DNA of 64,000 bases from Vicinamibacterales bacterium (lineage in GTDB: Bacteria; Acidobacteriota; Vicinamibacteria; Vicinamibacterales; UBA8438), in assembly GCA_965220695.1 (NCBI GenBank), contig OZ244838.1, positions 1,308,951-1,372,950 of the forward strand. The letters are read 5' to 3'. The position numbers were made by a program, and so were the translations under genes. The notes under the pieces were generated by a model. The model worked only from the letters and a program-made list of their open reading frames with translations, ran no database searches and had not been told where the DNA came from. Of the stretch, positions 7,582-47,670 are shown piece after piece. Position 1 is the first letter of the stretch. The number at the start of each line of letters is the position of its first letter.

Positions 7582-7783
7582 CAGGAGCCCGTGGCAAAAG
7601 CCCCGCTGCATTCGACCGGTCATGCATCCCGGCTGAACTGCGCAACGGCCGGCGGATCGGCGTTGAAAGCCGCCGATCCGCTGATATCCTCGGTCGAATA
7701 TGCCCAATATGCTCCCTCGTCACGCCTTGTCAGCCGGGCGCCTGACCGGTCTCGGTGCGACGCGGGGTTTCACCACGGACTCC
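7582..7783 (+). mobile_element. MITE-like repeat, copy A (with extra internal hairpin)
   Basis: Left end 'GAGCCCGTGGCAAAAGCCCCGCTGCATTCGA', core 'CCCAATATGCTCCCTCGTCACGCCTTGTCAGCCGGGCG', right end 'TCTCGGTGCGACGCGGGGTTTCACCACGGAC'. The ends are imperfect inverted repeats. It carries an extra perfect 11-bp stem GCGGATCGGCG/CGCCGATCCGC. Confidence 0.7.
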
Positions 7784-7851
7784 GAGGCGTCTCGCAGCAG
7801 GGTGGCGGTGCGCCGCGCCCGCTGGCGCCGGCGCCCGAGGAGGATTCGCTG

Positions 7852-8799
7852 ATGGTGGCGATGCAACGCCTGATTCTCGTCGTGATGGCGGTGGCCCTGG
7901 CATCGGTCGCCTGGGCCCAGCCGCCGGACTTCGTGAGGTGGAGCGCATCCGAGCTCGATCGGAGGGATGCCGCATCAGGGACCAGGATCGGTCCCGATCA
8001 CTCTGCCCGCGAAACGCTGGCCGAGTATGGCAACCCCACCGGCGCGCACCGGTTCCGGTTCATACGCCGCGATGCCGACGGGGTTCCGGAGCAGCACGAA
8101 CAGATTGACGACGTCGTCTTCATCCAGAGCGGAGCGGCGACCCTGCAGGTTGGCGGCGAGCTGGTCGACCGCAGGGGACGCGCCGGCGAGTACACGGGCG
8201 CGAGCATCGCCGGTGGCCAGCGGTATCCCGTCGGGCAGGGTGACATCCTCAGGATTCCGGCCGATACCCCGCATCGCTACCTCGTGCCGGCGGGCGGGCA
8301 CGTCACCTATGTGCTCGTGCGGATGCCGGCGCTCGACGGCGAGCCGCTGATTCCGGACGATGCGCCCGTGCTCGAGTTCGATCCGCCCGGATTCGTGCTG
8401 TGGAGCGCGGCGGAGCTGGCCCGCCGGCACGCCGCCCTCGCGGTGCGGGTCGGCCCGGACCACTCGGCCCGCGAAACGCTCGCCGACTTCGGCAGCCCGA
8501 CGCGATCCCACCGCTTTCGATACATTCACCGCGACGCGGACGGGCGCCCCGAGATTCACGACGACATCATCGACGTCGTGTTCGTGACGAGCGGGGTGGG
8601 GGAGGTGCTCGTGGGCGGCGAGATGCTGAACCGCACCGGCAGTCTGGGCACCGGCATCGACGGCGGTACGCGCTACCCGGTGGCGGCCGGCGACATGCTG
8701 CATATTCCGGCCCGCACCCCCCACGGCTACCTGATGCAGGACGGTGACCATGTCACCTACCTGCTGGTCAGAGTGCCCGCGTTTCGAGAAGTGCGGTGA
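7852..8799 (+). CDS. Secreted tandem-duplicated cupin-like protein (bicupin)
   Basis: ATG 7852 follows GAGGAGGA, and the signal peptide ends '..SVAWAQ'. Two ~154-aa halves (from 7921 and from 8383) align residue by residue: 'GPDHSARETLA.(Y/F)G.PT..HRFR(F/Y)I(R/H)RDADG.PE.H'. Confidence 0.6.
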   Translation: MVAMQRLILVVMAVALASVAWAQPPDFVRWSASELDRRDAASGTRIGPDHSARETLAEYGNPTGAHRFRFIRRDADGVPEQHEQIDDVVFIQSGAATLQVGGELVDRRGRAGEYTGASIAGGQRYPVGQGDILRIPADTPHRYLVPAGGHVTYVLVRMPALDGEPLIPDDAPVLEFDPPGFVLWSAAELARRHAALAVRVGPDHSARETLADFGSPTRSHRFRYIHRDADGRPEIHDDIIDVVFVTSGVGEVLVGGEMLNRTGSLGTGIDGGTRYPVAAGDMLHIPARTPHGYLMQDGDHVTYLLVRVPAFREVR

Positions 8800-8821
8800 C
8801 CGTCTGCAGTGCCCGCTGGTG

Positions 8822-11206
8822 CTAGAACAGCACGTTCAGGACGACCCGCGCCGTCCGCGGCAGCGACGGATGGAAGTGCACGTCTTCGACACCGCCCGGC
8901 GGTTCTCCCGGTAAGCGGGACTCGTAGAAATAGTCGATGTCGGACACGTTGCTGTCAAGCAGGTTGAACCCCTGCACGCTGATGCTCGCACGGTCGTTGA
9001 CGTGAAAGCCGATCTCGCCGTTCCAGATGGTGGTCGACTCGGACAGCACGCTGCCGTCCTCGATGAGGGGCCGCGGACCGAAGTGGCGCAGCCGGATGCT
9101 CCCGTAGAGCCGCCGGCTTGGCTCGACCGTCAGGGAACCGGCCACGACCCGGTCGAGGGCGCCCGGAATGAGATTGCCGGCCGGGTCCGAGTCAGAGAAC
9201 CGCGCCCGCGACAACGACAGATCGATCTCGCCGGTCAGCCAGGCGTTCACCCGCACGTAGTTCGTCCATTCCACCCCCACGCGCCGGCTCGGCCGGCTGG
9301 CTTCGGTGATGCCGGCGTCCCCGACGAAGAGGAGCTCCGAGTCGAACGACAGGTACCACAGGGCCACGGTCGACTGCACGCCTCCGAAACGGACCGTGCG
9401 CAGCCCGATTTCCGCGCCGTTCGCCGGGACGAGCGGGTCCTCCCGGTCCACCGGATCTCCGCTGACCGGATCGATGCGCACGGTCGCCGCCCGCGGGTCG
9501 TTGCTGTGGAACCCGCGGCCGTAGTTCATGTAGATTTCGGTGCCCGCCCAGGGGCCGAGGACGGCGGTCAGCTTCGGGCTCACCAGTCCCGAATGACCGC
9601 TCCCCGAGTTCAACGCGTTCCTGGCCGTCACGGCGTAGCGATAGACGTCGGTCCGCACCCCGAGCGTCGTGCGGAAGACGCGGCTCCATTCGATCTCGCT
9701 CTGGGCGAACAGTCCGGCGGTCGTCTGTCCGACCCGGTCATCCCGAATCGTGTTGAAGCGCCGGCGTGCGACGGTGTTGAAGAGACGGAGGGCGCCGACG
9801 GCGTCGTTCCTGTACGAGACCCCGACGGACGTTTCGGCAGGCCGGTTCAGTACCCGGCCCAGACGCCGGTGCACCAGCCGGGCGCCGGAGCTCCAGCGGC
9901 GGCCTTCCTGCTCCACCTGGTCGCCGTTCACCGGGTCGGCGAGGAAATAGGTGAAATTCTGAAAGAGGTTGAGCCCGCCGCGCAGCGCATACGCCGTGAC
10001 CCGGGTCGAGCGGTTGGCGCTCGACCGCAGACCGTCGAATGCCATCGTGTAGCGATAGGCGCGGCCGGCGTCGGTCGGGTCGATGTTGCCGAAGCGGCTG
10101 ATCCCTCCGGGGCCAACCGCCCGCGCCGGAATCTGGTCGGTCGAGTTCCAGTCGCCGGTGTACCCCATGCCGGTCAACGAAAAACCGTTCTGCTGGTTGC
10201 CCTGGCTGTAGCGCACCACGGCGTTGACTTTCTGCATGTCGTCGGGCAGCTCCCAGGGGCCGTCGTTGCGGCCGAGCTCCAGCGCCAGCAGCATGTTGCC
10301 CGCACCGACTTCCGGTGATACCGCCCCCAGCACGCGGCCCCAGCCGTAGCCTCCCGCGCTGACGCTGAACAGCGGCTCGTCGAGGCGGTTGACGTAGTTG
10401 ATGTTCGCCGAACCGGCCGCCGAGAAGTCGCCATGCTCGGCGAAGTAGGGGCCCTTGGTGTATTGCACGCCGCTGACCAGCTCCGGAATGAGCTGGTTCA
10501 CGTCCGTATACCCGTGGGCGTGTGCGCCCGACGACTCGTTCAGCGGCACCCCGGCCAGTGTCGTCGCGAAGTCGGAGCCGTGGTCGAGGTTGAAGCCACG
10601 CAGGTAGTACTGGTTGGCTTTCCCCTCGCCGCTGTGCTGGCTGACGACGAAGCCGGGCACCGATTCCATGACCTCGCCCGGCCGCATGATCGGTCTGGCC
10701 GCCAACTGCCCGGCGGTAATGGCCCCCACGCTCGCGGAGGTCGCGATGCCCACCAGGTTCTCTCGCGGGTTGTCGAGGTCCGCGATGTTCCGGAACGTGC
10801 GGCTTCCGGTGACGACCACGTCGGCGGTGATGCCCAGCGCCAGCCGGGCGTCGAGGGTGGCGGTTTCCCCGCCGACGACGGTGACGTCCGCGCGGAACGT
10901 CGAGAAATTGACCAGCCGCACCACCAGCGTCGCCGGTCCGGCCGGAATCCCCTCGATGCGGTACACGCCGACCGCATCGGTGACGGCGATACGCTCATCC
11001 CCGCCCGTTTCGACGACGACGGACGCACCAGGCAGCACGCCGCCGGTATCGTCAGCGACGACGCCGGTGATGACGCCACCGGTCTGGCCGAACGCGATCG
11101 CCGGCGACGCGGCCAGCACCGCGCAGCAGGCGGTGAACGCCAGCACGGCGCGCCCGCTCCGGACCGCAGGACGCCGCCCGCGCCCGGACGTCGTATTTCC
11201 GCTCAC
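8822..11206 (-). CDS. TonB-dependent receptor with N-terminal carboxypeptidase-regulatory-like domain
   Basis: 794 aa with a signal peptide. 'GVITGVVADDTGGVLPGASVVV' is CarboxypepD_reg-like, followed by plug and barrel regions and a C-terminal '..VVLNVLF' aromatic terminus. Confidence 0.85.
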   Translation of the reverse strand: MSGNTTSGRGRRPAVRSGRAVLAFTACCAVLAASPAIAFGQTGGVITGVVADDTGGVLPGASVVVETGGDERIAVTDAVGVYRIEGIPAGPATLVVRLVNFSTFRADVTVVGGETATLDARLALGITADVVVTGSRTFRNIADLDNPRENLVGIATSASVGAITAGQLAARPIMRPGEVMESVPGFVVSQHSGEGKANQYYLRGFNLDHGSDFATTLAGVPLNESSGAHAHGYTDVNQLIPELVSGVQYTKGPYFAEHGDFSAAGSANINYVNRLDEPLFSVSAGGYGWGRVLGAVSPEVGAGNMLLALELGRNDGPWELPDDMQKVNAVVRYSQGNQQNGFSLTGMGYTGDWNSTDQIPARAVGPGGISRFGNIDPTDAGRAYRYTMAFDGLRSSANRSTRVTAYALRGGLNLFQNFTYFLADPVNGDQVEQEGRRWSSGARLVHRRLGRVLNRPAETSVGVSYRNDAVGALRLFNTVARRRFNTIRDDRVGQTTAGLFAQSEIEWSRVFRTTLGVRTDVYRYAVTARNALNSGSGHSGLVSPKLTAVLGPWAGTEIYMNYGRGFHSNDPRAATVRIDPVSGDPVDREDPLVPANGAEIGLRTVRFGGVQSTVALWYLSFDSELLFVGDAGITEASRPSRRVGVEWTNYVRVNAWLTGEIDLSLSRARFSDSDPAGNLIPGALDRVVAGSLTVEPSRRLYGSIRLRHFGPRPLIEDGSVLSESTTIWNGEIGFHVNDRASISVQGFNLLDSNVSDIDYFYESRLPGEPPGGVEDVHFHPSLPRTARVVLNVLF

Positions 11207-11371: not shown

Positions 11372-11556
11372 CAGTCCATGGCAAGAGTCCCGCTGCATTC
11401 GACCGGCGCTGCGGTCGCAAATTTCCCAATTTGCTCGCTGTCCCGTCTGACGGCGTTGCTCCTCCGTCACACATGTCCCAATGTGCTCCCTCGTCGCGCC
11501 TTGTCAGCCGGGCGCAGCGCCGCTCTCGGTGCGACGCGGGGTTCTACCACGGGCTG
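11372..11556 (+). mobile_element. MITE-like repeat, copy B
   Basis: 'CAGTCCATGGCAAGAGTCCCGCTGCATTCGACC...CCCAATGTGCTCCCTCGTCGCGCCTTGTCAGCCGGGCG...TCTCGGTGCGACGCGGGGTTCTACCACGGGCTG'. It lies between the divergent TonB-dependent receptor (TBDR) and thiolase-operon genes. Confidence 0.75.
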
Positions 11557-11564
11557 TTAACCCG

Positions 11565-13031
11565 ATGTCGGTCGGTATTCATGCCTGTGGCGGCTATGTT
11601 CCGCGCGCGCGCCTCCAGCGGCGGGTCGTGGCCGAGGCCAATGCCTGGTTCGCGCCGGGGCTGCGGGGAATCGGCCGGGGTGAGCGGTCGATCGCCAACT
11701 GGGACGAGGACGCGGTCACCATGGCCGTGGAGGCGGCCCGGGACGCGCTGGCCGGCCGGCGCCGCGACGGTATCGAAGGGCTGTATCTCGCGTCCACCAC
11801 GCTGCCGTTTCAGGACCGCCAGAATGCCGGCATCGTCGCCGAAGCGCTGAGCCTGGGGTCCGGTGTGCGTACCCTCGACATCGCCGGTTCGCAACGGGCC
11901 GGCACCTCGGCCCTGATCACGGCGTGTCAAGCGGTCGCGGGCGGCGGCGGGCCGGTGCTGGTCGCGGGCGCCGACAAGCGGCGCACCAGGGCCGCCAGCC
12001 CACTCGAGCTGACGGCCGGCGACGGCGCCGCGGCGCTGCTCGTCGACGACGGCGACGGCGCCGCCCGGTTGTTGGGTCATGCCACCGAGACCGCCGACTT
12101 CGTGGACCACTACCGCGGTCCGCACGAGGAGTTCGACTACGTCTGGGAGGAACGCTGGATCAGGGACGAGGGCCTGCTGAAGCTCGTGCCCGCCGCGGTG
12201 ATCCGGGCGCTCGAGGCGGCGGGCGTTGCGCCCGACGCTGTCGACCATTTCTGTTTCCCCTCCGCCGCCCGCCGGGTCGGTGCCGCGCTCGCCAGGACGC
12301 TCGGGCTCCGTCCGGACAGCGTGCGAGACAACCTGCAGGGGCGTTGCGGCGAGACCGGGACGGCGCACCCGCTGGTCATGCTGGTCCATGCGCTCGAAGA
12401 GGCGCAGCCGGGCGATACCATACTGGTCGCCGGGTTCGGCCAGGGCTGCGACGCGATCGTGGTGCAGGCTACCGGGTCGGTGGCCGCGGCGAGGCCGCCC
12501 GTGGGGATCGGCGGCCACCTCGCGCGGCGGCGGGAAGAGACCAACTACCAGCGCTATCTGACCATCAACGATCTGCTGACCATCGAACGGGGCCTGCGGG
12601 CCGAAGTGGACAAGCAGACCGGGCTGACCACCTTATATCGCAACCGCGAGATGCTGCTCGGTCTGGTCGGCGGACGCTGCCGCGCCTGCGGTACCCCGCA
12701 GTACCCCAAGAGCCAGGTCTGCGCCAACCCCGACTGTCATGAGGTCGACAGTCAGGACGACCACCCGTTCTCGGAGATGACGGCCTCGCTGAACTCCTAT
12801 ACCGCCGACCGTCTCACGTACAGCCCCGACCCGCCGGCCTACTACGGCATGGTGCAGTTCGACGAGGGCGGCCGGGTGATGATCGACTTCACCGACATCG
12901 ATCCGGGCGCCGAGCTGCAGGTCGGCCAGCCGATGCGCATGCGGTTCCGGATCAAGGACTACGACACCGCCCGCGGTTTCCGGCGCTATTTCTGGAAGGC
13001 GGCGCCCGCGGATCACCAGGAAGGCACGTGA
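11565..13031 (+). CDS. HMG-CoA-synthase-like (thiolase-fold) domain fused to DUF35 Zn-ribbon/OB-fold domain
   Basis: ATG 11565. 'VGIHACGGYVPRARL..NWDEDAVTMAVEAARDAL..GDGAAALLV' is HMGCS/KAS-III-like. The C-terminal 'GGRCRACGTPQYPKSQVCANPDC' Zn ribbon plus OB fold is DUF35-like. Confidence 0.7.
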   Translation: MSVGIHACGGYVPRARLQRRVVAEANAWFAPGLRGIGRGERSIANWDEDAVTMAVEAARDALAGRRRDGIEGLYLASTTLPFQDRQNAGIVAEALSLGSGVRTLDIAGSQRAGTSALITACQAVAGGGGPVLVAGADKRRTRAASPLELTAGDGAAALLVDDGDGAARLLGHATETADFVDHYRGPHEEFDYVWEERWIRDEGLLKLVPAAVIRALEAAGVAPDAVDHFCFPSAARRVGAALARTLGLRPDSVRDNLQGRCGETGTAHPLVMLVHALEEAQPGDTILVAGFGQGCDAIVVQATGSVAAARPPVGIGGHLARRREETNYQRYLTINDLLTIERGLRAEVDKQTGLTTLYRNREMLLGLVGGRCRACGTPQYPKSQVCANPDCHEVDSQDDHPFSEMTASLNSYTADRLTYSPDPPAYYGMVQFDEGGRVMIDFTDIDPGAELQVGQPMRMRFRIKDYDTARGFRRYFWKAAPADHQEGT

Positions 13032-20905: not shown

Positions 20906-21865
20906 GTGCGTCGCGGAACGGCGAGGCCGAGCGTGTTTGATCGACGTCACGACGCACGAGTCAGAAACGCCGCCTTCCAGTGGCTCTCCGCGCTGGTCGC
21001 CAGTCATGGGGACGTCCTGCCGCGAACGCTCCTCGCCGAGGGGTTCACGCTGGACCGGATCCGCGTGCCGCTTGTCGGACCTCAGGGCATATTCAAGCCG
21101 CGCGTGCTGTCACGCGCGCCGCTGTCAATCACTACCGCGCCCGGAGTCAAATATGACGATGGCTTCGACGCGGATGGCCTCCTGCGTTACCGGTATCGGG
21201 GCGAGAATCCGAATCATCCCGACAACCGGGGCCTGCGATTCGCGCTCGCTGAGCGTCTGCCGCTGGTCTATGTCTACCGGCTGGTTCCCGGGAAATACGT
21301 GGCCGCATGGCCGGTGTTCATCGTCGGCGACGACCCCGGAGGTCTCGCCTTCACTGTGGTCGTCGACGATGCGGCGCACATCCGGCGACCGGCGGCCGGG
21401 ACCGCGGTGCATGACGACGCAGATATCGGGCGCCGGCGGTACATCACCGGCGCTTTCCGGCAGCGTCTCCACCAGCGGGCGTTCCGGGAGCGCGTACTGG
21501 ATGCGTACCAGCATCAATGCGCGTTCTGCCGGTTCAGACACCAGGAGCTGCTCGACGCGGCGCACATCGTGCCCGACACCGAGCCTCAAGGTACGCCGGT
21601 GGTAGAGAACGGCCTGTCGCTCTGCAAGCTGCACCATGCCGCGTTCGATCGCTACTTTCTCGGAGTCCGGCCGGACTACGTGGTCCAGGTCCGTGCCGAC
21701 GTCCTGGAAGAGAAAGATGGACCCACGCTCGTGCACGGCATCCAGGCGCTGCACGGCGTGAAGATCGCCGTGCCGCGGCGACCGGCTCTCCGACCCCGCC
21801 CGGAGCGGCTGGCATTCCGCTATCAACGTTTCCTGGAACAGGATCTTCGATCGGACCACATCTGA
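20906..21865 (+). CDS. HNH endonuclease with SRA/YDG-like N-terminal domain (candidate modification-dependent Type IV restriction enzyme)
   Basis: The C-terminal 'CAFCRFRHQELLDAAHIVPD..NGLSLCKLHHAAFDRYFLGV' is an HNH_2-type motif. The N-terminal 'GIFKP..PLSITTAPGVKYDDGFDADGLLRYRYRGENPNHPDNRGLRFA..PLVYVY' follows the SRA-like pattern of COG3440 proteins. Confidence 0.6.
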   Translation: MRRGTARPSVFDRRHDARVRNAAFQWLSALVASHGDVLPRTLLAEGFTLDRIRVPLVGPQGIFKPRVLSRAPLSITTAPGVKYDDGFDADGLLRYRYRGENPNHPDNRGLRFALAERLPLVYVYRLVPGKYVAAWPVFIVGDDPGGLAFTVVVDDAAHIRRPAAGTAVHDDADIGRRRYITGAFRQRLHQRAFRERVLDAYQHQCAFCRFRHQELLDAAHIVPDTEPQGTPVVENGLSLCKLHHAAFDRYFLGVRPDYVVQVRADVLEEKDGPTLVHGIQALHGVKIAVPRRPALRPRPERLAFRYQRFLEQDLRSDHI

Positions 21866-24026: not shown

Positions 24027-25646
24027 ATGATGCCCATACCACGAATGCATTCCGCGAACCGGTCAATCCTGCTCGGTGTTGTCGTTCTGGCGCTGACCGC
24101 GCTCTTCAGCGCGCCACCTGCCGGGGCGCAGACGGCGGACGAGGAATTGCGGGATCTCCGTGTCAAAGCGGAGCAGGGCGATGCTGCTGCGCAGTTCATC
24201 CTCGGGTTGACGTACCAAGTGGGGCTGGGCGTTCCGCAGGACGATGTTGAGGCGGTGCGCTGGTTTCGTCTGGCCGCCGAGCAGGGTCATGCTGCTGCGC
24301 AGTTCAAACTCGGACTTATGTACGGGGAGGGGCTGGGCGTTTCGCAGGACGACGTTGCGGCGGTGCGCTGGTTCAGGCTGGCGGCCGAGCAGGGTCATGC
24401 CCGAGCGCAATTCAATCTCGGGGTCCGTAAAAGTTTCGGTATGGGCATTCCGCAGAACGACGTCGAAGCGGTGCGCTGGTATCGTCTGGCGGCCGAGCAG
24501 GGTCATGCCAGTGCGCAGTTCAACCTCGGGGTCATGTACGCCAACGGGGAGGGTGTCCCGCAGGACGACGGTGCGGCGGTGCGCTGGTATCGTCTGGCGG
24601 CCGAGCAGGGTGATGCCGCAGCGCAGCTCAATCTTGGGGCGCAGTACGGCAGGGGTCAGGGGGTACCGCAGGATTACACCGAGGCCCTGCGCTGGTACCG
24701 GCTGGCGGCCATGCAAGGCAGTGTAACCGCCCAGAGTAATCTTGGATTGTATTACGCAAACGGCACGGGCGTTCTACAGGATGACGTAGTGGCGCACATG
24801 TGGCTCAACTTGGCCGCCTCCCGGTCAACCGGTGAGGATCGCGAAGAGCGTATGAACTGGCGCGATGAAGTGGCCGAACGGATGACGCGTGCGGATCTCA
24901 GCGAGGCGCAGCGATTAGCGCGGGAATGGCAACCCGATCAATCCGCGGCTCCTGCGGCGCGGGCAGCGAACCCGGCTGGTCGCCTGCCCGGCGACGGGCG
25001 CCCTTCGGACCGTGGCCCGGCCGACAGAGTGTCGACCGGATCCGGTTTTTTTGTCAGCGAGCTGGGTCATGTTCTTACAAATGCGCACGTGGTGCGCGAC
25101 TGCACCGAGGTGCGCATCCCTCCCGGTGACCCCGTCCTAGTCGCCGCGCGCGACGATTCCAGCGATTTGGCGCTGCTCCAAGGGCGATCGGACCGAAGTG
25201 GCGCGGTTGCGGCGTTCCGCGAGGGAAGAGGTATTCGGCCCGGCGCGGATGTGGTCGTGATCGGCTACCCGTTGCGCGGCGTCGTCTCTTCCGAACCGTC
25301 CGTGACGTTGGGCAACGTCAGCGCGCTGGCCGGTCCCGGTGACGACCGGCGCCTGTTCCAGATGACTGCGCCCGTACAACCGGGAAACAGCGGAGGGCCC
25401 GTACTGGACGGGGCCGGCCGCGTCGTCGGCGTGACTGTGTCCAAGCTCGACGCCCTGGAGATCCTCCGAGTCACCGGCGACATTCCGCAGAACGTCAACT
25501 TCGCTGTCAGTGCCGGAACCGCGCGTGCCTTTCTCGACGCCGAAGGCGTGCCCTACGAGACGGCGCCGTCCGACAACCTGCTGGCGGCGGACGTCGTCGC
25601 CGCATCGGCACGGAGCTTCACCGTGCTCGTTGAGTGCCGGAAGTGA
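24027..25646 (+). CDS. Secreted Sel1-repeat / trypsin-like (S1) serine protease fusion
   Basis: It has a signal peptide, six Sel1 units ('AEQG.A.AQF.LG..Y..G.GV.QD...AVRW(F/Y)RLA') and a C-terminal 'GSGFFVS..GHVLTNAHVV....QPGNSGGPVLD' chymotrypsin-fold protease. Confidence 0.8.
   Translation: MMPIPRMHSANRSILLGVVVLALTALFSAPPAGAQTADEELRDLRVKAEQGDAAAQFILGLTYQVGLGVPQDDVEAVRWFRLAAEQGHAAAQFKLGLMYGEGLGVSQDDVAAVRWFRLAAEQGHARAQFNLGVRKSFGMGIPQNDVEAVRWYRLAAEQGHASAQFNLGVMYANGEGVPQDDGAAVRWYRLAAEQGDAAAQLNLGAQYGRGQGVPQDYTEALRWYRLAAMQGSVTAQSNLGLYYANGTGVLQDDVVAHMWLNLAASRSTGEDREERMNWRDEVAERMTRADLSEAQRLAREWQPDQSAAPAARAANPAGRLPGDGRPSDRGPADRVSTGSGFFVSELGHVLTNAHVVRDCTEVRIPPGDPVLVAARDDSSDLALLQGRSDRSGAVAAFREGRGIRPGADVVVIGYPLRGVVSSEPSVTLGNVSALAGPGDDRRLFQMTAPVQPGNSGGPVLDGAGRVVGVTVSKLDALEILRVTGDIPQNVNFAVSAGTARAFLDAEGVPYETAPSDNLLAADVVAASARSFTVLVECRK
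24168..24815 (+). repeat. Six tandem 108-bp coding repeats (Sel1 units)
   Basis: A 36-codon periodicity is visible at DNA level, e.g. GCGGTGCGCTGGT(T/A)TCGTCTGGCGGCCGAGCAGGGT recurring. Confidence 0.8.
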
Positions 25647-26007
25647 TCCCCGAGCCGCCCCTGGCTGCAATATCCGAGAACTCGTATCACGAGAGGAACC
25701 ATGGCGGACCGGTCGCGCCGCGTGCGGGCGCGGCGTGACCGTGATGGAAACCGCCGTACGCAGGACGCGCCGCGATCAGCCGCGGAGCGGATGTCGATTT
25801 GTGCAGCCGCACGCATTTTTTCCTTGACAGCGATCTGACGGCCGACGTGCTCGCGGTCGGGGATGCCGGCTACAGGGGCGCTCAGACCGGCAGAGCGGCG
25901 CGCTGCGGCCCGCGGCCGGACCGGGCGATCGAAACCGACCCTTGCCCCGGGAACGACCCGCAGAGACGCGCTCAACCCGTTGTAAAACAGGGGCTTACAA
26001 TGGATCC

Positions 26008-27780
26008 ATGAGCATCGCATCAGACCTGTACGACACGGACATCCCTGCCCCCAATCCGCGATCCGTGGCGGTGGGCTCACCCGCCTTGCACGGCGCGGCG
26101 TCACCGCCCACGCCGCCGGACGCGGCGACCCGGCCGACAGCGCGCGGCGCGCTGACCCTTGCGTCACCGGCGCACGCCACCGCCATCGACATCTCGACGC
26201 CCGCGGTCCCGCCGCCGGTCATCACCGACCCGATGTCCCACGAAGCGCACCATGCGGCGGTCTCCCGGCACCGCGCGGAGGCGGTGCGTCTCGGCGACGA
26301 CATCGCCGAGTTGTCGGCCCGCATCCAGGCCGCGACCTACGAGCTGCTCGTGCTGATTCGCGCCTTCGACGAGCGGGAGGGGTGGGAGGGGTGCCAGTCG
26401 TGCGCGCACTGGCTGAACTGGCGCACCGGGCTCAAGCTGGGCGCCGCCCGTGAGAAGGTGCGGGTGGCGCGCGCGTTGGGCGCCCTGCCGCTGTTGAGCG
26501 ACGCGATGCAGCGCGGGCAGATCTCCTACTCGAAGGTGCGCGCCCTGACGCGCGTGGCGACCCCGGCCAACGAACGCCGTCTGCTCGACTTCGCGCTGTG
26601 CGCGCCGGCGTCCTATGTCGAACGGTTGGCGCGGGCGTGGCGCCGGGTCGACCGGGCCATCGAGGCGGCCGATGACCAACGGCGGCAGACGCGGCGGCAC
26701 CTCAACACCTGGGTCGACGACGACGGGATGGTCGTCATCCGCGGCCGGTTGTCCCCCGAGGTGGGCGCGGTGGTGCGGCGGGCGCTCGAGGCGGCGAGCG
26801 ACCGCTTGCGCACGGAGGTGGCCGCGGCCGACGCCGCCGAGACCAGCACGGTCCAACGCCAGGCGGATGCGTTGGGACTGGTGGCCGAGAGCGCCTTGGC
26901 GGCCGACCTCGACCGGGGGACGGCGGGCGACCGCTATCAGGTCGTGCTGCACGTCGAGGCGGAGACGCTCCAGGCCGACGCGGCGGCGCCCGCATCGCAC
27001 GTTTCCGCGGAAACGTCGCGCGACGCGAAAGCGAGGGAAGCGAGGGTTTCCGAGGAGACGCCTCCCGGCGCGGCGGCGCCCGCAACGCACGTTTCCGCGG
27101 AAACGTCATCCCACGCGGTCGGGTCCACCGGACGTGGGTGTCCGGACGCAGGCGGTCGCCCCGTCGCGGCGACCTCTTCCGCTCGGATGGCCGGCCACGC
27201 CGCCCTGGAAGATGGCGACGGGCTGCGCGTCTCCGCGGAAACGTCCCGCCGCGTGGCCTGCGATTCCGCGGTGGTCGTCCTGCAGCATACAGCGGACGGC
27301 GCGATCCTCGATGTCGGGCGCAAGACGCGCACCATCCCGCCGGCGCTGCGGCGGGCGCTGCAGGCGCGCGACCGCCAGTGCCGGTTCCCGGGCTGCCACG
27401 CCCGGCGCTGCGATGCGCATCACGTTCACCACTGGGCCGACGGCGGCGCGACGCGGCTCGACAACCTCGTGCTGCTCTGCCGGCGGCACCACCGTGCGGT
27501 CCACGAAGAGGGCTTCACGGTTCGGCTGGACCCGGCTGGAGATGCCGAGTTCTGCTGGCCCGACGGCCGGCCGTTTCCTGCGGTGCCGCCTCCACCCCGC
27601 TGGAGCGGCCCACCGCTGGCGCCGACCGACGCCCGCCTGGCCGCGTCCGCCATCGTGATCGACGCCGACACGGCCACGCCGGACTGGCACGGTGAACGCC
27701 TCGATGTCGGATTTGCGATTGACGTCATGTGGATACCGCGCACGGCCCCCGGCGCCGAGGCCAGTGGCGCACCGACGTAG
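26008..27780 (+). CDS. DUF222 / HNH endonuclease (REP13E12-type)
   Basis: ATG 26008. The N-terminus is DUF222-like ('LSARIQAATYELLVLIRAFDEREGW..'). The C-terminus is 'GRKTRTIPPALRRALQARDRQCRFPGCHARRCDAHHVHHWADGGATRLDNLVLLCRRHHRAVHE'. Confidence 0.8.
   Translation: MSIASDLYDTDIPAPNPRSVAVGSPALHGAASPPTPPDAATRPTARGALTLASPAHATAIDISTPAVPPPVITDPMSHEAHHAAVSRHRAEAVRLGDDIAELSARIQAATYELLVLIRAFDEREGWEGCQSCAHWLNWRTGLKLGAAREKVRVARALGALPLLSDAMQRGQISYSKVRALTRVATPANERRLLDFALCAPASYVERLARAWRRVDRAIEAADDQRRQTRRHLNTWVDDDGMVVIRGRLSPEVGAVVRRALEAASDRLRTEVAAADAAETSTVQRQADALGLVAESALAADLDRGTAGDRYQVVLHVEAETLQADAAAPASHVSAETSRDAKAREARVSEETPPGAAAPATHVSAETSSHAVGSTGRGCPDAGGRPVAATSSARMAGHAALEDGDGLRVSAETSRRVACDSAVVVLQHTADGAILDVGRKTRTIPPALRRALQARDRQCRFPGCHARRCDAHHVHHWADGGATRLDNLVLLCRRHHRAVHEEGFTVRLDPAGDAEFCWPDGRPFPAVPPPPRWSGPPLAPTDARLAASAIVIDADTATPDWHGERLDVGFAIDVMWIPRTAPGAEASGAPT
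26981..27108. repeat. Two 38-bp direct repeats 90 bp apart, each with the perfect 18-bp palindrome ACGTTTCCGCGGAAACGT
   Basis: The palindromes lie at 26999-27016 and 27089-27106. Degenerate versions are at 27227-27244 and 27987-28004, and perfect copies recur at 30752-30769 and 30842-30859. Confidence 0.85.
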
Positions 27781-30542: not shown

Positions 30543-30674
30543 GACACGACACAGCAGCACGCCACGTCGAGCCTTCCAGCGGGGTCGCTCAGGTCCGGCG
30601 ATCCTCGGGGAACGCCTCCAGTGCGCCAGTGCCGGCCACGCCCCGCCAGCTGCCCGGCGTGGTGACCGCGTGAC

Positions 30675-31125
30675 GGCGGCCGACCGCTATCAGGTCGTGC
30701 TGCACGTCGAGCCGGACACGCTCCAGACCGACGCGGCGGCGCCCGCATCGCACGTTTCCGCGGAAACGTCGCGCGACGCGAAAGCGAGGGCAGCGAGGGT
30801 TTCCGAGGAGACGCCTCCCGGCGCGGCGGTACGCGCATCGCACGTTTCCGCGGAAACGTCATCCAACGCGGCCAAATCCGCCAAACGTGGGTGTCCGGAC
30901 GCAGGCGGTCGCCCTGTCGCCGCAACCTCCGCCGCTCGGATAGCCGGCCATGCCGCACTGGAAGACGGCGACGGACTTCGCATGTCCGCGGACACCTCTC
31001 GCCGGCAGGCGTGCGATGCTGCGGCGGTCGTCATGCAACATGCGCCGGACGGCGCGATTCTCGACATCGGGCGCAAGACCCGAACCATCCTCCGGCGATC
31101 CGGCGGGCGCTCCTTGCGCGGGACC
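30675..31125 (+). pseudogene. Central fragment of a second DUF222-HNH gene
   Basis: About 450 bp align colinearly with 26925-27385 of the intact gene, including both palindrome repeats. It lacks the DUF222 N-terminus and the reading breaks just before the CRFPGC/HNH motif. Confidence 0.7.
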
Positions 31126-31284
31126 AGTGTGAACATGACGACGCGGAGGTGATGTCGCAATCGCGACATACAACCTGGACGGTGCCAGAGATTATGGCGA
31201 ACCCGCCCGCTGCCCACGTCGCCTGCGGGCATTCCGGTTGTCTTCCGAGACAGCGTAAGACACCCTGCCAGAGAAACGGTCTGG

Positions 31285-31442
31285 CAGCCCGTGGTGCAAG
31301 CCCCGCTGCATTCGAACGGCGCTGCATCCCGGCTGCCGGCGTTGCTCCTCGGTCACACATGGCCCAATGTGCTCCCTCGTCGCGCCTTGTCAGCCGGGCG
31401 CACCGCCATTCTCGGTGCAACGCGGGGTTTCACCACGGGCTG
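31285..31442 (+). mobile_element. MITE-like repeat, copy C (shortest, 158 bp)
   Basis: 'CAGCCCGTGGTGCAAGCCCCGCTGCATTCGAACGGCGCTGC...CCCAATGTGCTCCCTCGTCGCGCCTTGTCAGCCGGGCG...TCTCGGTGCAACGCGGGGTTTCACCACGGGCTG'. It overlaps the 3' end of the HEPN gene. Confidence 0.8.
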
Positions 31443-32130
31443 CTAGGTGGTCCATCATGTTGTCAAGAAATATCGGCACGAGAACGTCGAGAATCGCGGC
31501 GCCGGTCTGGGCTTGTCTGCGATTCATGAAGCCACCCGCGGTGGCGAATCCATGCATGAGCTGGTTGCGCAGCACGTACAGACGGCTGAAAACCTTGTCC
31601 AGCAGCTCTTTCAAAGGCTTACGGAGCTCCTTCACGGAGACGTTGTAATAGGCGTCGCTACCGTACTTGAGAAGCTTATCTACGTCCTTGATATCACGAT
31701 CGTATTGCTCCCACATCGTTTCGCGGTCGCGCTTGTCCCAGAATCTCCGGAACACGTACTCATTGGAGATGAGATCAGAGATCCAGGACTGAAGGTCGCT
31801 GCTGACGACTGTATAGATGCGGCGGCAGTCGAGTGCGATCAGAAGCCTGAGGAAGTCACAGTAACGGTCCGGTTCCGAGCGTCGATCGTGATCGGATTCC
31901 ATACGTGGATCGCGATCGATCGCGTAGGCGGCGTTGAACGCTATCCACAAGAAGATACACCTCGCATGGTTGCGATACTGGTCCTGCGTCGTGTCTTCGT
32001 CACATGCCCGCTTGAACCAGCTCAGGGATCGGTGGAGACGCTGCCTGAGGGGGTGATCCTTGTTCAACGTCGACTTCAACGTCTCGAACTTGTTCGTCAA
32101 AACCTCGTAGGTCGGCGGTTCGTTCGACAT
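31390..32130 (-). CDS. HEPN-like protein (RNxxxH motif), low-GC, stand-alone
   Basis: 246 aa, all-helical in appearance. 'RLYVLRNQLMHGFA' carries an R-x4-H motif in RN...H form. AGGTGA lies upstream of ATG 32130. The last ~18 codons and the stop are encoded by MITE copy C. Confidence 0.55.
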   Translation of the reverse strand: MSNEPPTYEVLTNKFETLKSTLNKDHPLRQRLHRSLSWFKRACDEDTTQDQYRNHARCIFLWIAFNAAYAIDRDPRMESDHDRRSEPDRYCDFLRLLIALDCRRIYTVVSSDLQSWISDLISNEYVFRRFWDKRDRETMWEQYDRDIKDVDKLLKYGSDAYYNVSVKELRKPLKELLDKVFSRLYVLRNQLMHGFATAGGFMNRRQAQTGAAILDVLVPIFLDNMMDHLAARGETPRCTENGGAPG

Positions 32131-32133
32131 GGC

Positions 32134-32355
32134 TCACCTGTAACGTTCACGCAACAACCGGTTACGACAACACACGAGAGTTTCCGCGTCGTGCACACGC
32201 TGGTGCCAGAACGGCGACACCATCCGCACGGCGTAGTCGTCGGCCAGAATCGGCGCGTGGTGCCAGCGCCAGTGATGCGCACGGATGGCGGCCGCGAGCG
32301 TCGCCGTCCGGCTCGTCCGGTTCGCCGGCGATGCGCCGGCTCGACGGAGCGTCAT
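32134..32355 (-). pseudogene. N-terminal fragment resembling LCM-type class I SAM methyltransferase
   Basis: 'SRTATLAAAIRAHHWRWHHAPILADDYAVRMV' follows the 'SRTA..A..RA.H.....P.(I/L)..D..A' N-terminal pattern of that family. It stops after 73 codons, 3 nt before the HEPN start. Confidence 0.35.
32316..32355. repeat. 40-bp direct repeat, right copy (partner at 22133..22172)
   Basis: TCCGGTTCGCCGGCGATGCGCCGGCTCGACGGAGCGTCAT. Confidence 0.8.
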
Positions 32356-32662
32356 GAACACAGCATACAGGCGCCGCCGGCGAGGTGTGTTCGCTTGACG
32401 CTGGTCCGCCGCTCATCGTCTGCATCGGACCTGCACCAGCCCTCCGGGCGACGTATCCGGACTTCATCGCCGACACGAAGAAGTTGCCCGTCAGACGTCT
32501 GCGCCATCGTCTGAATGCTGACGGTCGTGGGCAGCTTCGCCGTGGGCTCGGGCGTGGGACTCGGCCTCGGCGGTCGCGTTGGCGGTAGAATGGTCGGCGA
32601 GGAGACTGACCCCATGACATCCATGACACCGCACGCGTGCAACCTTGGCCGACTGGCCGTAG

Positions 32663-32820
32663 CAGCCCGCGGTGAAACCCCGCGTTGCACCGAGATTGGC
32701 GCTGCGCCAGCGTGGCAAGGCGCGACGAGGGAGCACATTGGTGCATGTGTGACCGAGGAGCAACGCCGCCACGCGGGATGCAGCGCCAATCGAATGCAGC
32801 GGGGCTTTCACCGCGGGCTG
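32663..32820 (-). mobile_element. MITE-like repeat, copy D (inverted relative to the others)
   Basis: Its reverse complement aligns end to end with copy C. The outer end supplies the ATG at 32794 used by the TonB-dependent receptor ORF. Confidence 0.8.
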
Positions 32821-35400
32821 CTAGCCGCTGTGCTGTTGTCGTTGTCGGCGACAGCCGCGGTGACGGCGGCCGTCCAGACGACCGGGGCCATCGAAGGCGC
32901 GGTCGTCGACGCGAACGGCAACCCGTTGCCCGGCGTGGTGGTGACGGTGGCCGGCCCCGGCGGGCGCGAGGAACGTGTCACGGGCGCCGATGGAACCTAC
33001 GCCGCTGCCGGTCTGGCGGCCGGCGACTATGTCGTCACCGCGATGCTGCCGGGCTTCGAGACCGTGGAGACGTCGGTCTCCGTCGGGACAGGCGCCACCG
33101 CAACGGTCCCGATCGTCCTGCAGATCGCGCGGTTGCTCGAAACGATCAGCGTCGTGTCGGAGGAGCCCCGGACCTTCGCGAGCAACATCGTCTCCCAACC
33201 GATGCGGCTGCAACAGTCGAACATCACGAGCGTGACGTCGGTGGTGGACAACCTTCCGGGCGTCTCCATCCAGGAGGGGGACGCGTACGGCTTCGACGAC
33301 TGGTCGAGCAATGTCGCCGTCCGCGGCTTTCAGGTGACCATCAGCGAGGCGCAGATCGGCACCACCATCGACGGGCTGCCGAACGGCACGTCCGACTACT
33401 TCAGCGGCGCCAAGGCGAACCGGTTCATCGATCCGATGAACCTCGGGGGGGTCGAGGTGTCGCAGGGAACGGCCGACATCGCCTCGCGGTCGGTCGAGGC
33501 GCTGGGCGGCACCTTCAACTACCTGACGGACGATCCGGCGGCGGAGCGGACCTACACGGCGTCGACCACCATCGGCGAGAACGACGGCAAACGGTTCTCC
33601 ATGCGGGTCGACACCGGGCCGTTGTTCGGCACCGAGACCCGCGCCTGGATCTCGGCGGTCCGTCAGGAGGCGACCGACTGGGTGCAGGGGTCGGCGCGCA
33701 ACGAGCGCGAGCATGTCGCCGCCAAGCTGGTCTCGTCACGCGGACGCCTCGATCTCACCAGCTACGTCTCGTACGACAGCATCCACGAAGACACCTACCA
33801 GCGGCTCTACAGCGACGCCAACTTCAGGGCCAACCCGCGCTGGGACCGCCTGGTCGGCGACTGGCCCGGCGTGCCGTATCTGAACCAGTTCTACCGGCCT
33901 GGCTGGCAGACGCGGCGGAACAATACATTCGCCTACCTGAAGGCGGACTGGTCGTTCAGCGACGTCACCTCGCTGAACCTGGGCGCCTATTTCCATCGCA
34001 ACCGGGGCCGCGGCGACTGGCTGCCTCCCTACATCGCCGACGTCACCGACGACGGCGGCGGACCGGAATCGGAGCTCATGGGAAGGGCAGCGGTACAGGG
34101 CGGCGCGCAACTCGGGCTGATCCGCTTCGTGAACCGGGACGGCGCCGCTGTCGGACCGACGCCCGGGTGCACGTCGTCCTACATCTTCAACTATTACGGC
34201 TCGGGCGGCCCGGCGGTGGACCCGGCGTGCCACCCGGGCGCCACCGCGGTGCAGTCGTACCGCCACAGCCACTACGGGAAGGACCGCATCGGCGTGACGC
34301 TCGACGAAGAGTGGTTCACGACCGTCGGCGCGGCTGGCAGCACACTGCGCGCCGGCATCTGGTACGAGGACTCGCGGCGCGATCTTGGCCGCGACTGGCA
34401 CCAGATGCTGGATCCGACGCTGAGCTTCAAGTGGAACGAGCAGGCCTACTGGCACCAGTACGAGTGGGATTTCCCGCAGCACGTCTTCAAGTGGTACATG
34501 GAGGAGACGATCTACGCTGGCCCGTTCGCTCTGAGTGGCGGCCTCAAGCAGTTCCTGGTCGGCGTGTCGCGCGACGACCTGTTCGACGTCGACCCGGAAC
34601 TGGCGGTCGATTCCGATTCGAAGCTGCTCATCTCCGGCGGCGTCACGTATGAGACCCCGGTCGAGGGTCTGGACCTGTTCGCCGGCTACGCCGAGAATTT
34701 CAAGGCCATCAGCAGCACGCTGCTCGAGGTGCCGGGACGCAGCCTCGATGCGCTCAAGCCCGAAACCGCCTCGAACATCGATGTCGGGCTGCAGTATTCG
34801 GGAGAGCGGGTTGCGCTGGGCGCCACCTGGTACACCATCGATTTCCAGAACCGGATCTTCTACCTCGGTCCGCAGACGCCGGCCGGTCCCAACTATCTCA
34901 TCCCGGGCGGCGGCGCCTACTTCAACGCCGGCGGCATCGACACGAGCGGCGTCGAGTTCTCTGCGACCGTGCAGTTGCCACGCCAGACATCGTTCTACAC
35001 CGCCTACACGTTCAACGACTCGACGTATCTCGGGAGCGGCGATCCGCTTGTCGACGCGAACCAGGGTATCGTGGCGGGTACCGATGTCACCGGCGTGCCG
35101 GACCGGCTGTGGGTCGTCTCGCTCGACCGGACCGGCCCCCTCGGCACGGGGCTGACCGCCAAGTACACGTCGCCGCGGCGCGTCAGCCTGACGTCGGACT
35201 GGTACGCGGACGCCTACTGGCTGGTGGACGCCTATCTCAGCTTCTCGGGCGCGGCGTTGAGTGATCTGCTGCGGTCGACGGAGTTCTCGATCGTGGCGAA
35301 CAACCTGTTCGACAAGGCCTATCTCTCGGCCATCACCGAGAACGCGGCCTGGCTCGGGGCACCGCGGACGATTTCGATGACCGCCACCGTCTCGTTCTGA
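32794..35400 (+). CDS. TonB-dependent receptor with carboxypeptidase-regulatory-like N-terminal domain
   Basis: The signal peptide is 'MQRGFHRGLLAAVLLSLSATAAVTAAVQ'. 'GAIEGAVVDANGNPLPGVVVTV' is CarboxypepD_reg-like. The barrel ends '..ISMTATVSF'. The track ORF start at 32515 is an upstream extension through the MITE. Confidence 0.85.
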   Translation: MQRGFHRGLLAAVLLSLSATAAVTAAVQTTGAIEGAVVDANGNPLPGVVVTVAGPGGREERVTGADGTYAAAGLAAGDYVVTAMLPGFETVETSVSVGTGATATVPIVLQIARLLETISVVSEEPRTFASNIVSQPMRLQQSNITSVTSVVDNLPGVSIQEGDAYGFDDWSSNVAVRGFQVTISEAQIGTTIDGLPNGTSDYFSGAKANRFIDPMNLGGVEVSQGTADIASRSVEALGGTFNYLTDDPAAERTYTASTTIGENDGKRFSMRVDTGPLFGTETRAWISAVRQEATDWVQGSARNEREHVAAKLVSSRGRLDLTSYVSYDSIHEDTYQRLYSDANFRANPRWDRLVGDWPGVPYLNQFYRPGWQTRRNNTFAYLKADWSFSDVTSLNLGAYFHRNRGRGDWLPPYIADVTDDGGGPESELMGRAAVQGGAQLGLIRFVNRDGAAVGPTPGCTSSYIFNYYGSGGPAVDPACHPGATAVQSYRHSHYGKDRIGVTLDEEWFTTVGAAGSTLRAGIWYEDSRRDLGRDWHQMLDPTLSFKWNEQAYWHQYEWDFPQHVFKWYMEETIYAGPFALSGGLKQFLVGVSRDDLFDVDPELAVDSDSKLLISGGVTYETPVEGLDLFAGYAENFKAISSTLLEVPGRSLDALKPETASNIDVGLQYSGERVALGATWYTIDFQNRIFYLGPQTPAGPNYLIPGGGAYFNAGGIDTSGVEFSATVQLPRQTSFYTAYTFNDSTYLGSGDPLVDANQGIVAGTDVTGVPDRLWVVSLDRTGPLGTGLTAKYTSPRRVSLTSDWYADAYWLVDAYLSFSGAALSDLLRSTEFSIVANNLFDKAYLSAITENAAWLGAPRTISMTATVSF

Positions 35401-42485: not shown

Positions 42486-42519
42486 TGAACGGGCGGTTGG
42501 CGCCGGCGTTCTCACGACT

Positions 42520-45229: not shown

Positions 45230-45293
45230 CCCCGGCCGCTTGCGGCGACCTGTCCGCAGCGGCCTCGGCGGCCGTCGCGCGGGTCTGGTTACG

Positions 45294-45337
45294 CGCCTGA
45301 CGGCGCCTGCTCGCAACCTGGCCGGCGCCGTCAGGCG
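45294..45337. terminator. Bidirectional hairpin between convergent genes
   Basis: Perfect 14-bp inverted repeat CGCCTGACGGCGCC/GGCGCCGTCAGGCG with a 16-nt loop. A second bulged hairpin lies at ~45234-45266. There is no U-tract. Confidence 0.5.
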
Positions 45338-46422: not shown

Positions 46423-46744
46423 GCGTGTGCGGCGCTGATCAGCCAAGTCGATGTACTCCTGTTTCGGTGTGGCGGGCTGCCGCCAGCGGACGCTCTGGAA
46501 TCTGCGCGTAGCATACCCCACCGCTCGTCATGGTCCGGGCGGGTGGCGCCGGGCTTGCGGCGGCGGCGATACCACGACTCGTAGAAAAAGTCGACGGGAA
46601 AGGCGTTGGTCGGGACCTCCGGCGGCAACGGTAGACCGGCGACGCGATCGAGGATCTGGAGATCGGCGGCATCGGGCTCCCTGTTTCGCTCTGACCCGCC
46701 CCCGGTATGGTCAGTGACCAATGTCGCGCGACTGCCGCTCGCTC

Positions 46745-47302
46745 TCAAGACGAGAAAACGTCGTCGAGGTCGACCTTCAGGCCGGCGAGCAGCGGCGAGT
46801 GGAGCGTCTTTCCTCGACCGAAGGTGAGGGCGAGGGTGAGCGCGCCGCCGCGCTGGCGGTGGATGGAGACGGTCTCCTCTGCCGGATCGACCAGCCAGTA
46901 CTCCGCCACGCCGTGTCTCTCGTAGAGGGTCCGCTTGTAGCCCCGGTCCCTCTCGGCAGTCGCCGGAGAAAGTATCTCTACAATCAGATCGGGCGCTCCC
47001 CGCACGTTGTCGCCGCCGCTCAGCAGGTGCTCGCGGTCGCGCGAGACGAACAGGAGATCCGGCTGCACGACGTCGGTGTCGGCCAGTACCACGTCGCAGG
47101 GGGCGAAGAAGAACTCGCCCAGGGCGCGTTCTTCGATGAACTGCCCCAGCCTGCGCCCCAGGCGGAACTGCACCTTCTGGTGCTTCAGATTCGGCGCCGG
47201 CGCCATGACCAGATCTCCGTCCAGCAGCTCGTAGCGCTCATCGGCCGGCGTGGTGCGGTAGTCCTCGTAGGTGAACTTGGCGACGGGTTGCGTGGTGCCC
47301 AC
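46745..47302 (-). CDS. Uma2-family (DUF820) endonuclease-like protein
   Basis: 'YELLDGDLVMAPAPNLKHQKV....VQPDLLFVSRD....APDLIVEILSP....D...K...Y...GV.EYWLVDP' is the canonical Uma2 pattern. Confidence 0.8.
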   Translation of the reverse strand: MGTTQPVAKFTYEDYRTTPADERYELLDGDLVMAPAPNLKHQKVQFRLGRRLGQFIEERALGEFFFAPCDVVLADTDVVQPDLLFVSRDREHLLSGGDNVRGAPDLIVEILSPATAERDRGYKRTLYERHGVAEYWLVDPAEETVSIHRQRGGALTLALTFGRGKTLHSPLLAGLKVDLDDVFSS

Positions 47303-47449
47303 GTGGGTGCTTCTCCCTCTGTCCCGGCGATCGCGACAACCATGATAGCCCGTTCCGGCATGGTTTCTTATTTGCCGCGCGTGGCCGCGGCCGCACGCGG
47401 CTGACCTGGAAGTCGTTCGCCATGATCGACGACCCCACCGACATCCTGG

Positions 47450-47670
47450 CAGCCCGTGGCAAGAGCCCCGCTGAATTCTGCGGTTTCACGCGGAATTCAG
47501 CCTTCCCCGCTGAATTCTGCGGTTTCACGCTGAGTTCTGCTGGGCCGCGTTGTTCCGGCTGATGAACAGGGCAACCACAAGGGTTGCCCCTACGGGTATT
47601 TTCCCTCGTCACGCCTTGCACAGCGGGCGCATCGCCGATCTCGGTGCTACGCGCGGTTTCACCGCGGGCT
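47450..47670 (+). mobile_element. MITE-like repeat, copy E (expanded variant)
   Basis: Left end 'CAGCCCGTGGCAAGAGCCCCGCTGAATTC', with an internal tandem duplication 'CCCCGCTGAATTCTGCGGTTTCACGC' x2 and a GGGCAACC/GGTTGCCC hairpin. The right end is 'TCTCGGTGCTACGCGCGGTTTCACCGCGGGCT'. Confidence 0.7.

Follow-up and report, generated by a model that had tools for sequence, protein, structure and literature searches.

The DNA analysed here is a 64,000-nucleotide window of the genome of a Vicinamibacterales bacterium (GenBank assembly GCA_965220695.1, contig OZ244838.1, positions 1,308,951 to 1,372,950 of the forward strand; G+C content, 67.7%). It contains five copies, A to E, of a short non-coding repeat. 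This repeat is very probably a family of non-autonomous MITEs (transposable elements of the miniature inverted-repeat kind) that shares its termini with an insertion sequence (IS) of the IS5/IS1182 type and is flanked by a 4-bp YTAR/CTAG duplication. As far as we have checked, the family is new, that is, an undescribed example of a well-known kind of element. A first-pass annotation of the window had proposed a MITE-like, non-coding mobile repeat; the size of the unit, its terminal inverted repeats, its duplications, an empty site, its spread and a matching IS all bear this out.

The window has exactly five matches each to an 18-nt motif of the core and to a 25-nt motif of the right end, compared with 0.43 and 0.00, respectively, in dinucleotide-preserving shuffles, so all five related copies originally claimed are present. 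A search with a profile built from 66 copies found no sixth copy in the 64-kb window. We refined the copy boundaries by alignment with 66 copies from other genomes; the coordinates first given for B, C and the inverted copy D were kept, and those of A and E had to be adjusted (Table 1). All five copies derive from one 158-nt unit, of which C and D are the canonical form, and 53 of the 66 aligned copies are exactly 158 nt long. The left terminus reads CAGCCCGTGG(CA/TG)AAAG and the right terminus is CTTTCACCACGGGCTG-like. The terminal consensus is CAGCCCGTGGcaAAAg on the left, with TG variants being common, and CAGCCCGTGGTGAAAC on the right when reverse-complemented. Position 1 covaries with position 158, the pair being C-G in 48 copies and G-C in 16.

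A scan with 20 nt of the right end, in which each bacterial and archaeal species was covered by one genome, returned at least 107 loci in at least 40 assemblies, almost all of them metagenome-assembled genomes (MAGs) of Vicinamibacterales. The fetched loci (L001-L107) and the window together amount to 904 kb. A profile search gave 146 hits, 86 of them full length and mostly exactly 158 nt, and 125 elements were counted in the 107 loci from 40 assemblies. Further copies are therefore abundant, both genome-wide and across at least 40 genomes.

The flanks of 85 full-length copies from the window and the 107 loci were aligned, with the next 4 nt outward serving as control. The 4-bp flanks were identical in 43 copies and carried a single mismatch in 23 more (at most one mismatch in 66/85), compared with identity of the control 4-mers in 1/85 copies, and conservation ended exactly at the 4-nt duplication. 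CTAG accounts for 29 of the perfect duplications; CTAC, CCAG, CTGA and CTTG occur twice each, and ATAG, TAAA and CTAT are also found. Because CTAG is its own reverse complement, it cannot on its own separate a duplication from an extended inverted repeat. The non-palindromic flanks repeat directly, and are therefore true target-site duplications and not part of the inverted repeat. A 2-bp (TA) duplication was considered and rejected, since the direct repeat comprises all four flanking bases wherever these are not CTAG. Loci labelled Bryobacterales have TTAA- or TAAA-like flanks, and the overall target is thus YTAR with a strong preference for CTAG.

A comparison with relatives lacking the element, as the first-pass annotation had proposed, produced one pair of empty and filled sites. 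At the position of a lone CTGA in L004, locus L045 reads CTGA-[92-nt deletion derivative]-TTGA; the two loci come from different species and are syntenic at 87-90% identity. Two other candidate comparisons were discarded. The window and L066 are 95% identical beside a MITE cluster, but this is a rearrangement breakpoint and not an empty site, and a 1.28-kb difference between L029 and the window, tried as an IS, is an ordinary gene.

The duplications also bear on a different origin, namely a REP/BIME-type repeat spread by a RAYT (an IS200/IS605-like tyrosine transposase). The element is palindromic, mainly extragenic and multi-copy, as such repeats are. However, clear 4-bp target duplications are not made by HUH/Y1 transposition, the unit measures 158 nt and not 20-40 nt, and the element has CAG/GAG ends and no GTAG or CGTC head. 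As the autonomous element with matching ends moreover encodes a DDE transposase (see below), we regard this origin as having almost no chance of being correct.

The first-pass annotation had recorded no transposase, which is correct for the window but not beyond it, and had recommended a search for an autonomous IS with the same termini. By pairing terminal motifs across all loci, we found such an IS at L073:6352-7816 (1465 bp) in OZ252008.1, a genome that also has 12 MITE loci. The sequence of the IS is CTAG / CAGCCCGTGGTGAAAGTCCC...CTTCTGCCACGGGCTG / CTAG; it has a single open reading frame (ORF) of 456 amino acids (L073:6420-7790) and directly abuts another MITE copy, with one CTAG common to both. 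The encoded transposase matches the Pfam families DUF772 (9.3e-18) and DDE_Tnp_1 (1.4e-5), both above their gathering scores. Its best NCBIfam match is IS1182 (1e-46; 159.7 bits, against a curated cut-off of 270), followed by IS5 (IS5_4; 1e-23; 83.7 bits, against a curated cut-off of 140). A metagenome scan revealed at least 569 relatives of the IS, and the 80 metagenome loci that were kept contain 55 complete copies of 1444-1542 bp. Both ends of these 55 copies have the terminal consensus CAGCCCGTGGTGAAAG(TC), and 43 of them are flanked by a CTAG/CTAG duplication, the others by TTAG, CTAA or ATAG variants. The MITE termini match the IS termini over ~16 nt. The IS also lies alongside MITE fragments, seen as partial profile matches, on contigs L117 and L126. 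A transposase of plasmid pLB1 (AB244976.1), annotated as an IS5 family transposase, is a distant relative of that of the partner IS, with 48% amino-acid identity, and the pLB1 element has CAGGCCGTTGACGAAGTCGG-type ends and a CTAA duplication. IS5 duplicates YTAR (PMC5009759).

Other candidates for the parent IS did not hold up. Leads from solo right or left ends were all false. An 894-bp 'element' in L058 consists of IHF/HU-like and HIT-like genes (named by eye from ORF translations), with a partial MITE fused to the 3' end of the second, HIT-like gene. The lead in L050 is a MITE copy of 621 nt (5835-6455) enlarged by an internal tandem repeat of 42 bp in about ten units. An IS630-family element in the window was rejected as the mobiliser because its termini differ and its duplication is 2 bp.

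From the anatomy of the elements and established knowledge of DDE transposons, we infer that the MITE is mobilised by the 456-residue transposase using cut-and-paste chemistry. An IS copy located elsewhere in the same genome would provide the transposase in trans, and the enzyme would bind the termini common to MITE and IS. The element would then be cut and pasted into YTAR sites, overwhelmingly CTAG in these high-GC genomes, and staggered cleavage 4 bp apart followed by repair would leave the 4-bp duplication. As CTAG is scarce and often overlaps TAG stop codons, surviving insertions would pile up in intergenic DNA and at gene ends; as each insertion regenerates two CTAG targets, adjacent and tandem insertions would be favoured.

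The scarcity of the target is considerable. Outside MITEs, the 904 kb contain 222 CTAG sites, compared with 2643 expected from base composition, an under-representation of ~12-fold, and the CTAGs flanking MITEs make up a sizeable share of all CTAGs in the window and L001-L107. Predicted stop codons account for 18% (41/222) of the free sites, and 20% lie inside predicted genes. Among the 85 full-length copies, 25 (29%) immediately adjoin a predicted stop codon that forms part of the duplication. Since the duplication keeps TAG, insertion at a stop leaves the gene intact. We rejected stop-codon targeting as a special property of the element, because the locations of CTAG sites largely explain it; target choice together with selection against gene disruption is enough to account for a placement in intergenic DNA or at gene ends, which had been claimed for every copy in the window but does not hold for D (see below). 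Orientation relative to co-directional neighbouring genes is unbiased (18 same, 17 opposite). That each insertion makes a second CTAG fits the adjacent and tandem arrays that we observed: the array in L007, the clusters in L066 and L094, and the ISs abutting MITE copies. The L007 array (5767-6201) consists of three head-to-tail copies with a 4-nt spacer, GCAG, and a period of 162 nt.

The 40 assemblies carry the deposited labels Vicinamibacterales/Vicinamibacteria (30 MAGs), Bryobacterales (3), Terriglobia (2), 'Acidobacteria' (3) and 'Gammaproteobacteria' (2). Mean identity between copies is 91% within a genome and 84% between genomes, and copies from genomes labelled as different classes are as similar to each other as copies within Vicinamibacterales. 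Among the matches listed, the closest relatives of the window copies are in MAG OZ253576.1, which also shares a 95%-identical gene with the window. Three proteins of the window were looked up by exact match, and none of them is on record. With ~1 copy per 13 kb, the window is about three times denser than the other loci, consistent with the high density originally noted; the fetched loci, a biased sample, have ~1 further copy per 42 kb beyond the copy that defines each locus. The two MAGs labelled Gammaproteobacteria, represented by L035 (OX639965.1) and L087 (VYBN01000010.1), have full-length copies; these share 97.5% identity with each other and ~84% with copies of Vicinamibacterales, which points either to cross-phylum transfer or to mislabelled bins. 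A blastn search of a plasmid collection gave no match to copy C, and viral contigs gave no match to the right-end motif, and hence no sign of phage carriage.

The longer copies in the window had been taken for individual variants, A having acquired an extra hairpin and E a tandem duplication plus a hairpin. This view has to be revised, as MAG OZ253576.1 has the variants of A, B and E again, with 84-89% identity, at loci unrelated to those of the window. The A form is present in L005 (OZ253576.1; 84% identity), the 185-nt B form in L024 and L055 (86%), and the E form in L014 and L066 (82-89%). The inserts thus define subfamilies that have themselves transposed and are propagating. At the other extreme, deletion derivatives of 72-105 nt keep only the two ends and are still flanked by duplications, indicating that the ends suffice for insertion.

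Inverted-repeat ends and folding into a single hairpin had been predicted for each copy, and the folding in fact involves the whole 158-nt unit, not only its ends. It forms one long imperfect hairpin with a folding energy of -94 to -106 kcal/mol and z-scores of -6.9 to -9.8 relative to shuffles, on either strand. In the 66 aligned copies, 88.8% of the cells of the 62-pair hairpin are paired, compared with 35-44% when the partners are slid. Changes on both sides occur at 29 pairs, compared with 8-12 in the slid controls and 14.6 in shuffles; these counts are per sequence and not per event, so that related copies inflate them and independent support is overstated. The double changes fall mostly in the inner stem, beyond the termini that MITE and IS have in common; the columns concerned are 33-52, paired with 110-128, and 74-78, paired with 85-89. 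Compensatory changes keep the hairpin well beyond those termini. This maintenance may reflect either a mutational process by which the arms are homogenised or selection acting on the hairpin. G-U pairs are conserved at five plus-strand positions and several A-C positions are G-U on the opposite strand, a pattern that clearly favours neither strand. No T-run was found after the hairpin, the flanks of the 85 full-length copies being random beyond the 4-bp duplication.

Across the aligned copies, none of the ORFs shows conservation as coding sequence, in agreement with the first-pass annotation, and open frames match the expectation at 66% GC. Frame +0 is stop-free in 61 of the 66 aligned copies, and the unit plus its duplication is a multiple of three, so that in-frame insertion into genes could be tolerated.

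Several observations weigh against the interpretation as a MITE family mobilised by the partner IS, or at least limit it. Although the transposase is a member of the IS5/IS1182 superfamily, both NCBIfam scores are below their cut-offs, and its assignment to one family is tentative. MITE and IS have no more than the outer 16-20 nt in common, and we detected no similarity between the MITE interior and the IS; the MITE is thus not a simple internal-deletion derivative. The partner IS was not found in the window, so trans-mobilisation in this genome is a matter of inference. The duplications of the window copies all carry one or two mismatches (Table 1), and these copies may be old and perhaps immobile. 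Finally, the 84% identity of the 158-nt unit between genomes is higher than the 67-82% of most aligned coding DNA (window versus other MAGs), and covariation continues through the inner stem. Such conservation and covariation exceed what recognition of the termini alone would explain.

These last points raise the question of whether the element has been exapted, spreading by transposition while host-level selection keeps the full-length hairpin. Possible roles are as a stabiliser or attenuator of mRNA 3' ends after stop codons, or as a DNA structure for nucleoid or topology proteins; host roles of that sort have been proposed for ERIC, Correia and REP elements. This idea, which is compatible with the MITE interpretation, draws on the pairing and two-sided changes of the 62-pair hairpin, the location of the double changes in the inner stem, the between-genome identity, equally high across differently labelled classes, and the 25 copies that abut a stop codon. 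On the other hand, orientation relative to genes is unbiased, the hairpin is not followed by a T-run and its flanks are random beyond the duplication. Stop adjacency is near the 18% background of CTAG sites, and is expected from target choice and selection against insertion within genes. Mini-derivatives without the interior still insert, the covariation counts are inflated by related copies, and the conservation could be explained equally well by horizontal transfer or by a recent expansion of a few master copies. On balance, we consider exaptation unlikely. Its boldest form is equally unlikely; in it, the entire 158-nt hairpin is under selection across Acidobacteriota, and possibly beyond (as two of the MAGs bear the label Gammaproteobacteria), and acts as a portable structural module, of RNA or DNA, that is brought exactly to CTAG stop codons. 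If this were true, the module could determine the 3' ends or the stability of mRNAs, or make a cruciform to which proteins bind, and selection would explain both the above-coding conservation and the compensatory changes outside the transposase-binding termini.

A further alternative is that the repeat is not a transposon but a multi-copy structured non-coding RNA gene or a cis-regulatory RNA. The strong predicted structure (z-scores of -7 to -10), the covariation and the high sequence conservation would suit such an RNA. Against it stand the 4-bp direct duplications and the empty site, the transposase-encoding IS with the same ends, the presence of copies in either orientation relative to genes, of some copies inside coding sequence and of tandem copies with a 4-nt spacer. 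Taken together, the unbiased orientation, the lack of a favoured strand and the missing T-run speak against an RNA gene tied to one strand, and against a classical terminator as well. The single stretch scanned for promoters, around C and D (31000-33200), yielded no promoter-like site. Rfam gave no hit at the gathering threshold anywhere in the window, and at E<=10, in a search around C and D, just one match overlapped a copy: a plant microRNA-precursor model matched over D with E = 0.36 and 22 bits, where the gathering score is 79, and we put this down to chance. The six other weak matches fall outside the copies or reach no further than their first bases. No Rfam hit was thus counted at either threshold. 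Overall, an RNA gene is very improbable. Nor did we find a description of the family in the literature on MITEs of Acidobacteria or Vicinamibacter, on CTAG-duplicating MITEs or on the terminal sequence. The designation of the family as unrecognised in the first-pass annotation therefore stands, and neither of the alternatives raised there, a known non-coding RNA or REP family or a conserved gene, was borne out. A non-autonomous MITE family with an IS5/IS1182-type partner remains our preferred interpretation.

The copies in the window, together with other features mentioned below, are listed in Table 1.

Table 1. MITE copies and other features of the 64-kb window (positions are those of the window).
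Feature	Position	Strand	Length	Flanking 4-mers	Form and site
MITE copy A	7585-7782	+	198 nt	TCAG (7581-7584) / CGAG (7783-7786), degenerate duplication	Subfamily with extra internal 11-bp-stem hairpin; between tannase-family gene (5775-7547) and cupin gene (~7855-8799)
MITE copy B	11372-11556	+	185 nt	TTGA / TTAA	Subfamily with 27-nt internal insert; between divergent genes, TonB-dependent receptor (8822-11206, -) and thiolase-like/ChsH2-domain gene (~11595-13031, +)
MITE copy C	31285-31442	+	158 nt	CTGG / CTAG	Canonical form
MITE copy D	32663-32820	-	158 nt	CTAG / CTAC (element orientation)	Canonical form; inside TonB-dependent receptor ORF
MITE copy E	47450-47671	+	222 nt	CTGG / CCGG	Subfamily with internal tandem duplication (GCTGAATTCTGCGGTTTCACGC) and extra hairpin (GGGCAACC-ACAA-GGTTGCCC)
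TonB-dependent receptor ORF	32515/32614-35400				Contains copy D
Gene ending in copy E	47659-48159	-			
Segment between copies C and D	31443-32662		1.2 kb		355-aa ORF without Pfam match
HNH_2 endonuclease gene	20906-21865				Upstream of DUF222 + HNH endonuclease gene
Sel1-repeat/trypsin-like peptidase gene	24027-25646				Upstream of DUF222 + HNH endonuclease gene
DUF222 + HNH endonuclease gene	25942-27780				
Partial DUF222/HNH paralogue	30664-31125				Just upstream of copy C
IS630-family IS	49004-50197 (approximate ends)		1.19 kb		CTAG site with apparent TA duplication
ORF of IS630-family IS	49012-50010	-			Matches Pfam DDE_3

Two of the five copies contribute to coding sequence. Copy D lies within a TonB-dependent receptor ORF, in the part that codes for the signal peptide and between the charged and the hydrophobic parts of this peptide, and is the exception to the intergenic or gene-end placement mentioned above. 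Together with its duplication it adds 162 nt, or 54 codons, which are in frame and stop-free, to the 5' end of the receptor ORF. An ATG at 32794 inside the copy would give the N-terminus MQRGFHRGLLAAVLLSLSATAAVTAAVQ, a plausible replacement signal peptide. The right end of copy E provides the last three codons and the TGA stop of a minus-strand gene, the stop lying within the terminal motif GGTGAAA (window 47659-47671); the clipping of gene ends that had been claimed is thus seen here. Copies C and D, in opposite orientations, bracket 1.2 kb in the manner of a composite transposon, and their flanking 4-mers fit one composite event and two separate insertions alike.

The IS630-family IS has a T8 run near 49714-49721, which suggests a frameshift. 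Copies with 87-88% identity are present in OZ252008.1 (L098 and L103), one of them directly abutting a MITE copy, and a mini derivative of ~115 nt lies beside a mini-MITE in L086. The DUF222 + HNH endonuclease gene has a partial paralogue 3.5 kb away with 87% identity, and is 95% identical to L066 (OZ253576.1); its architecture is like that of the 13E12 repeat proteins of mycobacteria. Between ~23 and 32 kb, few predicted genes have a high third-position GC, and this part of the window may be an acquired island.

Abundant in soil, Vicinamibacteria and related Acidobacteriota are known almost exclusively through MAGs. A repeat present at ~1 copy per 13 kb in the window, and at ~1 further copy per 42 kb in the biased set of loci, matters for assembly and binning. 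It also affects gene calling, since ORFs are lengthened or clipped by copies and can take a start or stop codon from them, and insertion polymorphism could distinguish strains. A MITE/IS pair with a strict CTAG target, in genomes depleted of CTAG by 12-fold, is a clean system for studying target scarcity versus transposon spread. Our general understanding of MITEs is unchanged by these results, which add a well-defined family and its partner IS; the covariation in the hairpin raises the question of host exaptation of such elements.

The closest known systems are the ISs of the IS5 group and the IS1182 type, such as E. coli IS5 and the pLB1 element, with which the partner IS has the DUF772 + DDE_Tnp_1 architecture in common. 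It resembles IS5 in its 4-bp YTAR duplication (PMC5009759), and its ends begin with CAG/GAG. The pLB1 relative is alike in its CAG-initiated ends, its CTAA duplication and the 48% identity of its transposase. What distinguishes the window from these systems is that it holds a non-coding 158-nt passenger and not the IS. Furthermore, the transposase of the partner IS has 456 residues, compared with ~330 in IS5 InsH, and its target in Vicinamibacterales is almost exclusively CTAG.

Among non-coding repeats, we would place the family beside ERIC/IRU of enterobacteria, Correia/NEMIS of Neisseria and RPE of Rickettsia, which it resembles in its long-hairpin architecture. These are units of 100-170 nt that form imperfect palindromes over most of their length; ERIC, Correia and RPE are present in many, mostly intergenic copies and are co-transcribed with their neighbours. 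RPE is occasionally inserted in frame in genes, and copy D, with its 54 codons, recalls this behaviour, as does the frame +0 that is stop-free in most aligned copies. ERIC and Correia duplicate TA, whereas the present family duplicates 4 bp at CTAG. It differs from ERIC, Correia and RPE also in its Acidobacteriota hosts and in having an identified partner IS of the IS5/IS1182 type. REP/BIME repeats are similar in being extragenic and palindromic and in lying at gene ends, but differ in size, in their head motif, in the lack of a target duplication and in their mobilising enzyme, RAYT.

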